Assembly: GCF_003334355.1 (NCBI RefSeq) | Contig: NZ_QOWP01000115.1 | Length of the DNA: 327 bases | Strand: one strand, 5' to 3' | From: Escherichia coli | GTDB lineage: Bacteria > Pseudomonadota > Gammaproteobacteria > Enterobacterales > Enterobacteriaceae | Shown here: one piece after another, positions 1-327 of the stretch | Layout: every line of letters starts with the position of its first letter | How positions within the stretch are numbered: the stretch's first letter is position 1 | Notes under the pieces: model-generated | The model's input: only the letters and a program-made list of their open reading frames with translations | Told to the model about the DNA's origin: nothing | The model's database searches: none | Position numbers and translations under genes: made by a program

Positions 1-327
1 TTCAACGGGCGGCCTGACTGCACCATCTCTCCACAGGCAAGAACGGCGTGCCCCGCCGCTAAAATGTTACGAGCGCCGTTTACATCGGCGTTCGCTGTAT
101 ATCCACATACCTGGCATCTGAATTTACTTTGTGACAGGCGGTTCTCTTTCGCTGTATGACCACAGTACGCGCAACGCTGGCTTGTATACGCTGGCGGAAC
201 AGCAAGCACCTGACCGCCACGCCAGAGCTGCTTGTACTCAAGCTGGCGGTGCATTTCATACCAGCCCTGATCCAGTATCGAACGGTTTAAACCTGATTTT
301 GCCCGGACATTGCGCCCCGGCTGGCTG
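1..327 (-). CDS. tnpB: Partial CDS, truncated at both window edges: C-terminal region of a TnpB-type RNA-guided endonuclease (IS200/IS605- or IS607-family accessory protein OrfB). Complete codons span 3-326.
   Basis: Seen in sequence: the reverse-complement frame starting at + strand 326 reads 108 codons with no stop, while the other two minus-strand frames and all three plus-strand frames contain stops. The translation has the TnpB hallmarks in the family order: GW..L.YK, then [11 protein letters not shown], a second C..CG, then the [14 protein letters not shown] RuvC-III motif. Codon usage looks enterobacterial. From unverified memory it closely resembles the E. coli IS609 TnpB (insQ/ydcM-like); this needs a BLAST check. 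Confidence 0.9.
63..92 (-). other. RuvC-III catalytic motif of TnpB ([10 protein letters not shown]), conserved Asp codon (gat) at + strand 84-86
   Basis: Seen in sequence: the reverse complement of 63-92 reads aac gcc gat gta aac ggc gct cgt aac att, i.e. [10 protein letters not shown]. Established knowledge: the third RuvC catalytic residue of TnpB/Cas12 is an Asp in an N-A-D-x-N-(A/G)-A-x-N-I context just downstream of the zinc finger. Confidence 0.8.
105..173 (-). other. Zinc-finger (zinc-ribbon) motif of TnpB, C-x2-C-x15-C-x2-C (CAYCGH ... CQVCGY), all four Cys codons intact
   Basis: Seen in sequence: Cys codons at + strand 171-173, 162-164, 114-116 and 105-107 (minus-strand tgc, tgt, tgc, tgt). 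Established knowledge: TnpB and Cas12 proteins carry a CxxC...CxxC zinc finger inserted between RuvC-II and RuvC-III. Confidence 0.8.

Follow-up and report, generated by a model that had tools for sequence, protein, structure and literature searches.

The 327-nt stretch of Escherichia coli DNA analysed here (hereafter the window) is, with essential certainty, the 3' third of insQ, the tnpB gene of IS609 (IS200/IS605 family). The IS609 copy concerned is the ancient chromosomal one, located between ydcL and ydcO. By analogy with characterised systems, we read it as an intact, probably active TnpB/ωRNA module within a non-autonomous IS, because insQ is intact in all 15 copies compared, nonsynonymous change in it is depleted, tnpA was lost at least four times and IS609 is immobile in K-12. 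That InsQ would act as a functional RNA-guided nuclease is considered probable, at roughly 0.75.

As a gene identification this adds little, given that the annotation of K-12 and of almost all other E. coli genomes already lists insQ and IS609 and that the biology of TnpB is well described. What is useful is the detailed anatomy obtained for a native E. coli TnpB, comprising the element ends, the putative TTTAT TAM, the predicted ωRNA helices, the candidate guide TATCGGTTTCTGTCAGCG and the IS-free targets. To this comes a population contrast: among the ten sampled alleles, there are at least four separate inactivations of tnpA and not one disruption of insQ. If InsQ is active in laboratory K-12, an endogenous RNA-guided nuclease could affect experiments with TTTAT-flanked matching sequences, and the same strain would offer a convenient native system for the role of TnpB after transposase loss.

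Identity and genomic context of the window

When compared with the annotated insQ genes of complete E. coli chromosomes, the window showed 100% DNA identity in the minus-strand orientation, the strand to which an earlier note, made from the sequence of the window alone, had assigned the gene. At a coverage of ≥ 80%, the window was present in 4,885 of 5,426 complete E. coli genomes (~90%). Two exact-match strains (L001 and L002) were examined for gene context. The window corresponds to L002 5001-5327, and a position in L002 equals 5328 minus the window position. The N-terminal 845 nt of insQ lie to the right of the window; to its left, only 37 nt of the CDS remain, followed by the 43-nt right end of the element. 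In both strains, the gene order is tehA-tehB-ydcL-(tnpA pseudogene)-insQ-ydcO. The features located in the window, the protein and tnpA are collected in Table 1.

In K-12 MG1655, the element is annotated as mobile_genetic_element IS609 at 1503161-1504908, the tnpA remnant as the pseudogene yncK (b4578), and insQ (b1432, formerly ydcM) as 'putative RNA-guided DNA endonuclease InsQ'; the NCBI name for the product is 'RNA-guided endonuclease InsQ/TnpB family protein'. Since insQ thus already bears the name of a putative RNA-guided endonuclease, the identification is not new. The E. coli IS609 InsQ that the earlier note had proposed as a comparator turned out to be the window's own gene. Gene and locus are the same as in K-12, with allelic differences only: between the window and MG1655, 5 of 327 nt and 2 of 108 aa differ (H308R, E312A), and the L002 protein as a whole differs in 4 of 402 aa. 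The lineages also differ in their tnpA lesion, which is a 5-nt or 1-nt deletion (L002, L001) versus a premature stop in K-12.

Table 1. Location of the features of insQ, the InsQ protein, the predicted ωRNA and the tnpA lesions
Feature	Position	Strand	Remarks
insQ codons 283-390 of 402	window 1..327	minus	nt 846-1172 of the 1,209-nt CDS
End of RuvC-II region, zinc-finger/TNB domain and RuvC-III	window 1..327		Span of the window
Zinc-finger CxxC pair 1, C334-A-Y-C337 (CAYC)	window 162..173	minus	15/15 copies
Zinc-finger CxxC pair 2, C353-Q-V-C356 (CQVC)	window 105..116	minus	15/15 copies
RuvC-III motif NADVNGA	window 72..92	minus	D363 aligned to ISDra2 D361
Catalytic Asp D363, codon GAT	window 84-86	minus	Invariant, 15/15 copies
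Predicted ωRNA (reRNA) scaffold, 5' part, inside the CDS	window 1..95	minus	Alignment and RNAalifold
Predicted ωRNA helix 2, wraps the NADVNGA codons	window 69-95	minus	RNAalifold
Predicted ωRNA helix 3	window 43-59	minus	RNAalifold
Predicted ωRNA helix 4, 5' strand	window 33-37	minus	RNAalifold
Predicted ωRNA helix 5	window 22-29 with 7-13	minus	RNAalifold
HTH_OrfB_IS605 (PF12323)	InsQ residues 1-48		Pfam
OrfB_IS605 (PF01385)	InsQ residues 162-277		Pfam
Cas12f1-like TNB (PF07282)	InsQ residues 304-370		Pfam
tnpA lesion, 1-nt deletion			3/10 alleles
tnpA lesion, 5-nt deletion			2/10 alleles
tnpA lesion, stop	tnpA codon 96		4/10 alleles, K-12 among them
tnpA lesion, stop	tnpA codon 62		1/10 alleles

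Domain architecture and catalytic residues of InsQ

Translation of the minus-strand frame from window base 326 gives 108 stop-free codons, and the remaining two minus-strand frames of the window contain 4 to 5 stops each. The 108-aa fragment alone matches Pfam PF07282 (Cas12f1-like TNB, formerly OrfB_Zn_ribbon) at 4.4e-24 and NCBIfam guided_TnpB at 110.6 bits (cutoff 100). The frame is real and no chance ORF. What the earlier note had read within the window was borne out, i.e., 108 codons without stop or frameshift, the four zinc-finger cysteines in CAYC and CQVC, and the RuvC-III Asp retained in NADVNGA.

The full insQ ORF (L002 4156-5361) encodes 402 aa from a GTG start without a stop or frameshift, which agrees with the roughly 350-420 aa that had been anticipated. 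The complete protein scores 378.6 bits against NCBIfam NF040570 guided_TnpB (cutoff 100). [quoted passage not shown] A PDB sequence search aligned InsQ to ISDra2 TnpB 8bf8 across residues 3-372 (E = 2.6e-55), and the ISDra2 TnpB entries 8bf8, 8exa and 8h1j all align at about 1e-55. In these alignments, RuvC-I D183 (GLDAGV) corresponds to ISDra2 D191, RuvC-II E267 (VIEDL) to E278 and RuvC-III D363 to D361, such that the RuvC-I Asp and RuvC-II Glu, which the earlier note had expected outside the window, are both in place. The CxxC...CxxC zinc finger sits between RuvC-II and RuvC-III. Neither a frameshift nor a substitution of the RuvC-I or RuvC-II residue was found, and the best match is not TldR-like. 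On every feature examined, InsQ is a bona fide TnpB, and it probably cleaves DNA.

In the PDB sequence search, InsQ matches best to entry 9yyg (E = 1.1e-62), described as an 'AI-designed RNA-guided nuclease', and less closely to the natural ISDra2 TnpB (2.6e-55).

Assignment to Cas12f or another type V effector was rejected based on scores far below the respective cutoffs, both for Cas12f2 (92 bits, cutoff 450) and for c2c8 (141 bits, cutoff 350). In the annotation, no CRISPR-associated genes or repeat features were present near insQ, the neighbours of which are ydcL, the tnpA remnant and ydcO. An IS607-type TnpB was likewise rejected, as NF038280 reaches 191.7 bits (cutoff 350) and the partner is a Y1 HUH enzyme, not a serine recombinase.

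A predicted structured RNA across the 3' end of insQ

The last ~175 nt of IS609, composed of the end of the CDS and the 43-nt right end, form a conserved covarying RNA structure. Relatives of the element were collected from 57 loci in viral or prophage contigs (30-97% protein identity), and the last 220 nt of the element were aligned for 15 of these relatives with 57-97% protein identity. RNAalifold on the 15 relatives returned six helices with a total of 40 pairs, and compensatory double changes are seen in 12 of them. Paired cells amount to 93.8%; sliding the 3' partners by 1-3 columns lowers this value to 38-58%, and these slid controls have 2-6 compensatory pairs instead of 12. The observed covariation score was reached by none of 500 shuffles. 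The E. coli sequence itself has a fold z-score of -4.5. The right-end terminus GGAGGATGTCAA is invariant among the 15 relatives, down to about 57-60% protein identity.

From window base 1, the predicted scaffold runs about 80 nt further, past the window, to the right end of the IS at GGAGGATGTCAA. A structured RNA that spans the 3' end of tnpB and terminates at the IS boundary is what would be expected of an ωRNA, and the covariation points to such a molecule here. Window bases 1-95 are predicted to encode protein and guide-RNA scaffold at once. Since the covarying hairpin wraps NADVNGA, the codon of the catalytic Asp appears to be constrained both in the protein and in the RNA. The hairpin sequence of helix 2 is GCGAACGCCG-ATGTAAA-CGGCGCTCGT (window 69-95, minus strand).

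All Rfam hits on the ωRNA stretch are sub-threshold, namely HgcC (22 bits, gathering threshold 50), sot0042 (19 bits, threshold 88) and RAGATH-18 (25 bits, threshold 44.9), and were taken as pointers only. HgcC and sot0042 are RNAs that overlap the 3' ends of tnpB genes in archaea.

Ends of IS609, TAM and IS-free sites

A whole-element search retrieved the same inner span at loci other than ydcL/ydcO as well. These other IS609 sites include a TetR-family gene in O157, gltX/yfeD, a DUF3251 gene, yfaY/yfaV and yhgE/hslO. With five independent insertions lined up, the left end of IS609 starts with CCGGTGCGCC and the right end finishes with GGAGGATGTCAA, terminating in ...GGATGTCAA, and the element has a full length of 1,748 bp. 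Its partner transposase is a Y1 HUH TnpA; an intact 143-aa tnpA product (L004) contains the HVHLL motif and RQYIEQQ, the latter of which is taken to carry the catalytic Tyr.

In each of the five insertions for which the left junction could be read (ydcL/ydcO and four others), TTTAT directly precedes the left end. Four IS-free strains, Nissle among them, have TTTAT directly joined to TATCGGTTTCTGT(C/T)AGCG, without a scar or duplication. The flank of the occupied allele, which is the would-be guide, matches perfectly in two of these four strains. Following the pattern of the IS200/IS605 family, TTTAT would be the TAM of IS609 and the right-flank sequence the guide of the ωRNA. The assignment of TTTAT agrees with a published assay design in which TTAT is taken as the TAM for IS609-like TnpB (PMC12781874). 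Because TTTAT would serve as TAM and the right flank as guide, the IS-free allele combines a putative TAM with a guide match and would represent a donor-joint target.

The IS-free junctions are located at L003 1501-1570 and at positions 81-150 of L074, L075 and L076. The other two of the four IS-free strains have a C-to-T change at guide position 13, which equals a D/N difference in the tail of YdcO. The IS-free alleles may never have been occupied or may go back to precise excision. IS609 is inserted exactly in the stop codon of ydcO (L002 5404-5410, outside the window and immediately to its left; L003 1533-1540). In IS-free strains, this stop is a TAA made up of the last T of TTTAT and the flanking TA; in occupied strains, it is a TGA inside the right end of the IS, with one residue gained (...NRNR* to ...DRNRY*). 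The putative guide region is antisense to the final codons of ydcO, and insQ and ydcO converge. At the other side of the element, the T-run of the ydcL terminator (L002 3638-3657) supplies the TTTAT.

Decay of tnpA and retention of insQ

A sample of 10 ydcL/ydcO-locus alleles out of roughly 4,900 genomes (97.8-100% identity, K-12 included) was compared together with five copies from elsewhere. The insQ ORF measures 1,209 nt in all 15 copies, and D183, E267, D363 and the four cysteines are present in each of them. Among the 14 full copies, there are zero indels in insQ or the right end. In ydcO-locus insQ, 17 synonymous and 22 nonsynonymous codons segregate over 268 and 938 sites, respectively, which corresponds to a nonsynonymous/synonymous ratio of about 0.37 (binomial p = 0.0024 against neutrality, 10 alleles). 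This ratio is relaxed relative to typical core genes, and the pairwise ratios among insQ alleles range from 0.07 to 1.0, i.e., a moderate depletion of nonsynonymous change. The tnpB/ωRNA module is under purifying selection.

The 432-nt tnpA (remnant at L002 3647-4148) has suffered at least four independent inactivating lesions in the same 10 alleles (L001, L002 and L009-L016; Table 1). At equal per-nucleotide rates, about 11 disruptions of insQ would be expected in these alleles, versus none observed (P(0) about 1e-5). Intact tnpA persists elsewhere, for example in O157 strain Z1814; one IS609 TnpA from O157 is WP_000604943.1. Since tnpA is dead at ydcL/ydcO, this IS609 copy is non-autonomous and can move only with TnpA provided in trans.

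The LE hairpin (L002 3679-3698) reads CCCCATCC...GGGCGGGG in 10/10 ydcL/ydcO copies and CCCCGTCC at other loci. A G-to-A change common to the ydcO-locus copies creates an A·C mismatch in the hairpin stem, which may by itself immobilise the ydcL/ydcO copy. In K-12 mutation-accumulation lines, IS609 accounts for 0 of 758 new insertions (PMC5009759). IS609 at ydcL/ydcO is non-autonomous and immobile in K-12, and its tnpB/ωRNA module is preserved. The suggestion of the earlier note that the window belongs to something other than a decayed IS remnant holds for this undecayed module; it fails for the element as a whole, in which tnpA is a pseudogene and which does not transpose. Why insQ survives where tnpA is repeatedly lost is one point of modest interest.

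Possible mode of action and alternative explanations

By analogy with ISDra2 TnpB and the TnpBs of Geobacillus, InsQ would process the 3' end of the insQ transcript into an ωRNA and bind it. This ωRNA would carry as its guide the 16-20 nt of flank just beyond the right end, here UAUCGGUUUCUGUCAGCG, the end of ydcO. The InsQ RNP would then cut double-stranded DNA where TTTAT directly precedes a match to the guide, that is, the IS-free 'donor joint', and recombination with an occupied copy would repair the break, such that the element is restored and retained. The mechanism of the TnpB family is described by Karvelis 2021 (PMC8612924) and Nety 2023 (PMC10278001), a cryo-EM structure of TnpB in PMC10097598, and the homing or donor-joint model by Meers 2023 (bioRxiv 10.1101/2023.03.14.532601). 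As tnpA is dead and the LE hairpin mismatched, TnpA-mediated excision, which canonically sets off the action of TnpB, may never take place at ydcL/ydcO.

In the literature on IS609 TnpB/insQ, no activity or cleavage assay for IS609 InsQ was found. Outside this scope lies the screen of Xiang et al. (Nat Biotechnol 2023), which is reportedly the original ISfinder TnpB screen. The sole paper found that handles an 'IS609' TnpB uses a variant of metagenomic origin with 94% identity to the entry in ISfinder, and reports only another ortholog as most active in trans-cleavage.

The element could also be an idle relic, in which the ORF, ωRNA and ends survive as decay lags or as gene conversion from mobile IS609 refreshes them, and in which InsQ does nothing. 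Such a relic is in line with the loss of tnpA in 10/10 ydcO-locus alleles, the LE hairpin mismatch common to all of them, the lack of transposition in the K-12 lines and the only moderate nonsynonymous depletion (pairwise 0.07 to 1.0); moreover, mobile IS609 copies with intact tnpA in some strains could donate sequence. It is also in line with the lack of a predicted promoter upstream of insQ, where a consensus scan of L002 3600-4200 yielded no sigma-70-like site ahead of the GTG start in the direction of the gene, a result that is uninformative on expression. We nevertheless regard an inert InsQ as unlikely. In the same alleles, insQ has 0 disruptions against at least four independent ones in a tnpA that is 2.8-fold shorter, the nonsynonymous deficit is significant and indels are missing from insQ and the right end in the 14 full copies. 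In addition, K-12-type genomes have one IS609 place and therefore no conversion donor. Another explanation is that a host-exapted or TnpA-independent selfish function keeps InsQ and its ωRNA at the fixed locus, either by cutting incoming IS-free ydcL-ydcO alleles during recombination (allele drive) or by acting on ydcO, of which the stop codon is replaced by the IS and the 3' end is antisense to the guide. Fixation of the locus in about 90% of genomes, repeated independent loss of tnpA while insQ is kept, natural IS-free alleles with TTTAT and a perfect guide match, and a ydcO stop codon inside the right end with convergent transcription all fit this explanation. As a competitor to an ordinary TnpB it seems very unlikely to us, however: the occupied locus has GTCAA instead of TTTAT before the guide-matching DNA, such that the RNP would not be expected to act on the locus that encodes it; tnpB-only elements are the rule, with a neighbouring tnpA for only about 25% of tnpB genes (Meers et al.), such that no special function is needed; and selection is more simply explained by TnpA supplied in trans from IS609 copies elsewhere. 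The broader proposal that insQ and the ωRNA at ydcL-ydcO are kept by selection independent of their own transposase, be it as a species-wide allele drive or exclusion system or in a host-exapted role at ydcO, is in our view unlikely; if true, either version would explain at least four losses of tnpA with insQ intact in about 90% of genomes.

Finally, InsQ was weighed as a TldR-like, nuclease-dead TnpB derivative that acts as an RNA-guided repressor. TldR proteins share with InsQ a distant TnpB homology and a chromosomal position beside a host gene, and this fixed location is the sole feature in favour. InsQ lacks the features by which TldR is defined: the RuvC D-E-D triad and full C-terminus occur in 15/15 copies, insQ sits in a bounded IS with LE, RE and TAM, and identical elements are found at several other loci. 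The TldR reading was rejected on the intact triad and C-terminus and the position of the gene within a bounded IS609, and we give it next to no credence. The earlier note had argued against a TldR-type protein as well, rightly so given that triad and C-terminus are intact and that the gene has IS ends along with a putative ωRNA and TAM.

Comparison with characterised TnpB systems

ISDra2 TnpB of Deinococcus radiodurans, the reference RNA-guided TnpB, has the domain order, D-E-D triad and zinc finger in common with InsQ. In both elements, the ωRNA, predicted in the case of IS609, extends across the 3' end of tnpB into the right end; the activity of InsQ, in contrast to that of ISDra2 TnpB, is a predicted one. 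Both elements also have a 5-nt T-rich TAM 5' of the left end, putatively TTTAT in IS609. The TAM of ISDra2 is TTGAT. InsQ differs in an insertion of roughly 15 aa after RuvC-II that is missing from ISDra2 TnpB, and IS609 differs in the divergent orientation of tnpA.

The IS605-family TnpBs of Geobacillus stearothermophilus (Meers et al. 2023) resemble that of IS609 in the combination of a TAM with a donor-joint target that matches a flank-derived guide, as proposed here for IS609, and in the prevalence of tnpB-only, non-autonomous copies. In contrast to the Geobacillus elements, most of the species carries the IS609 copy as a fixed insertion at a single orthologous locus, and the tnpA of this copy decayed in place several times instead of being missing from the outset.

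Among the relatives in viral or prophage contigs, L029 and L033 have RE termini (2741-2752) with GTCAC instead of GTCAA and share a common right flank. A single insertion may be represented here by two related prophage contigs; alternatively, the element may truly end one base earlier. In L045, an LE-like hairpin, CCCCTTCCTTTTAGGTAGGGGATATAAGGCGC, is located about 100 nt right of the RE (roughly 2860-2900), which suggests that a second IS200/IS605-type element or a PATE adjoins.
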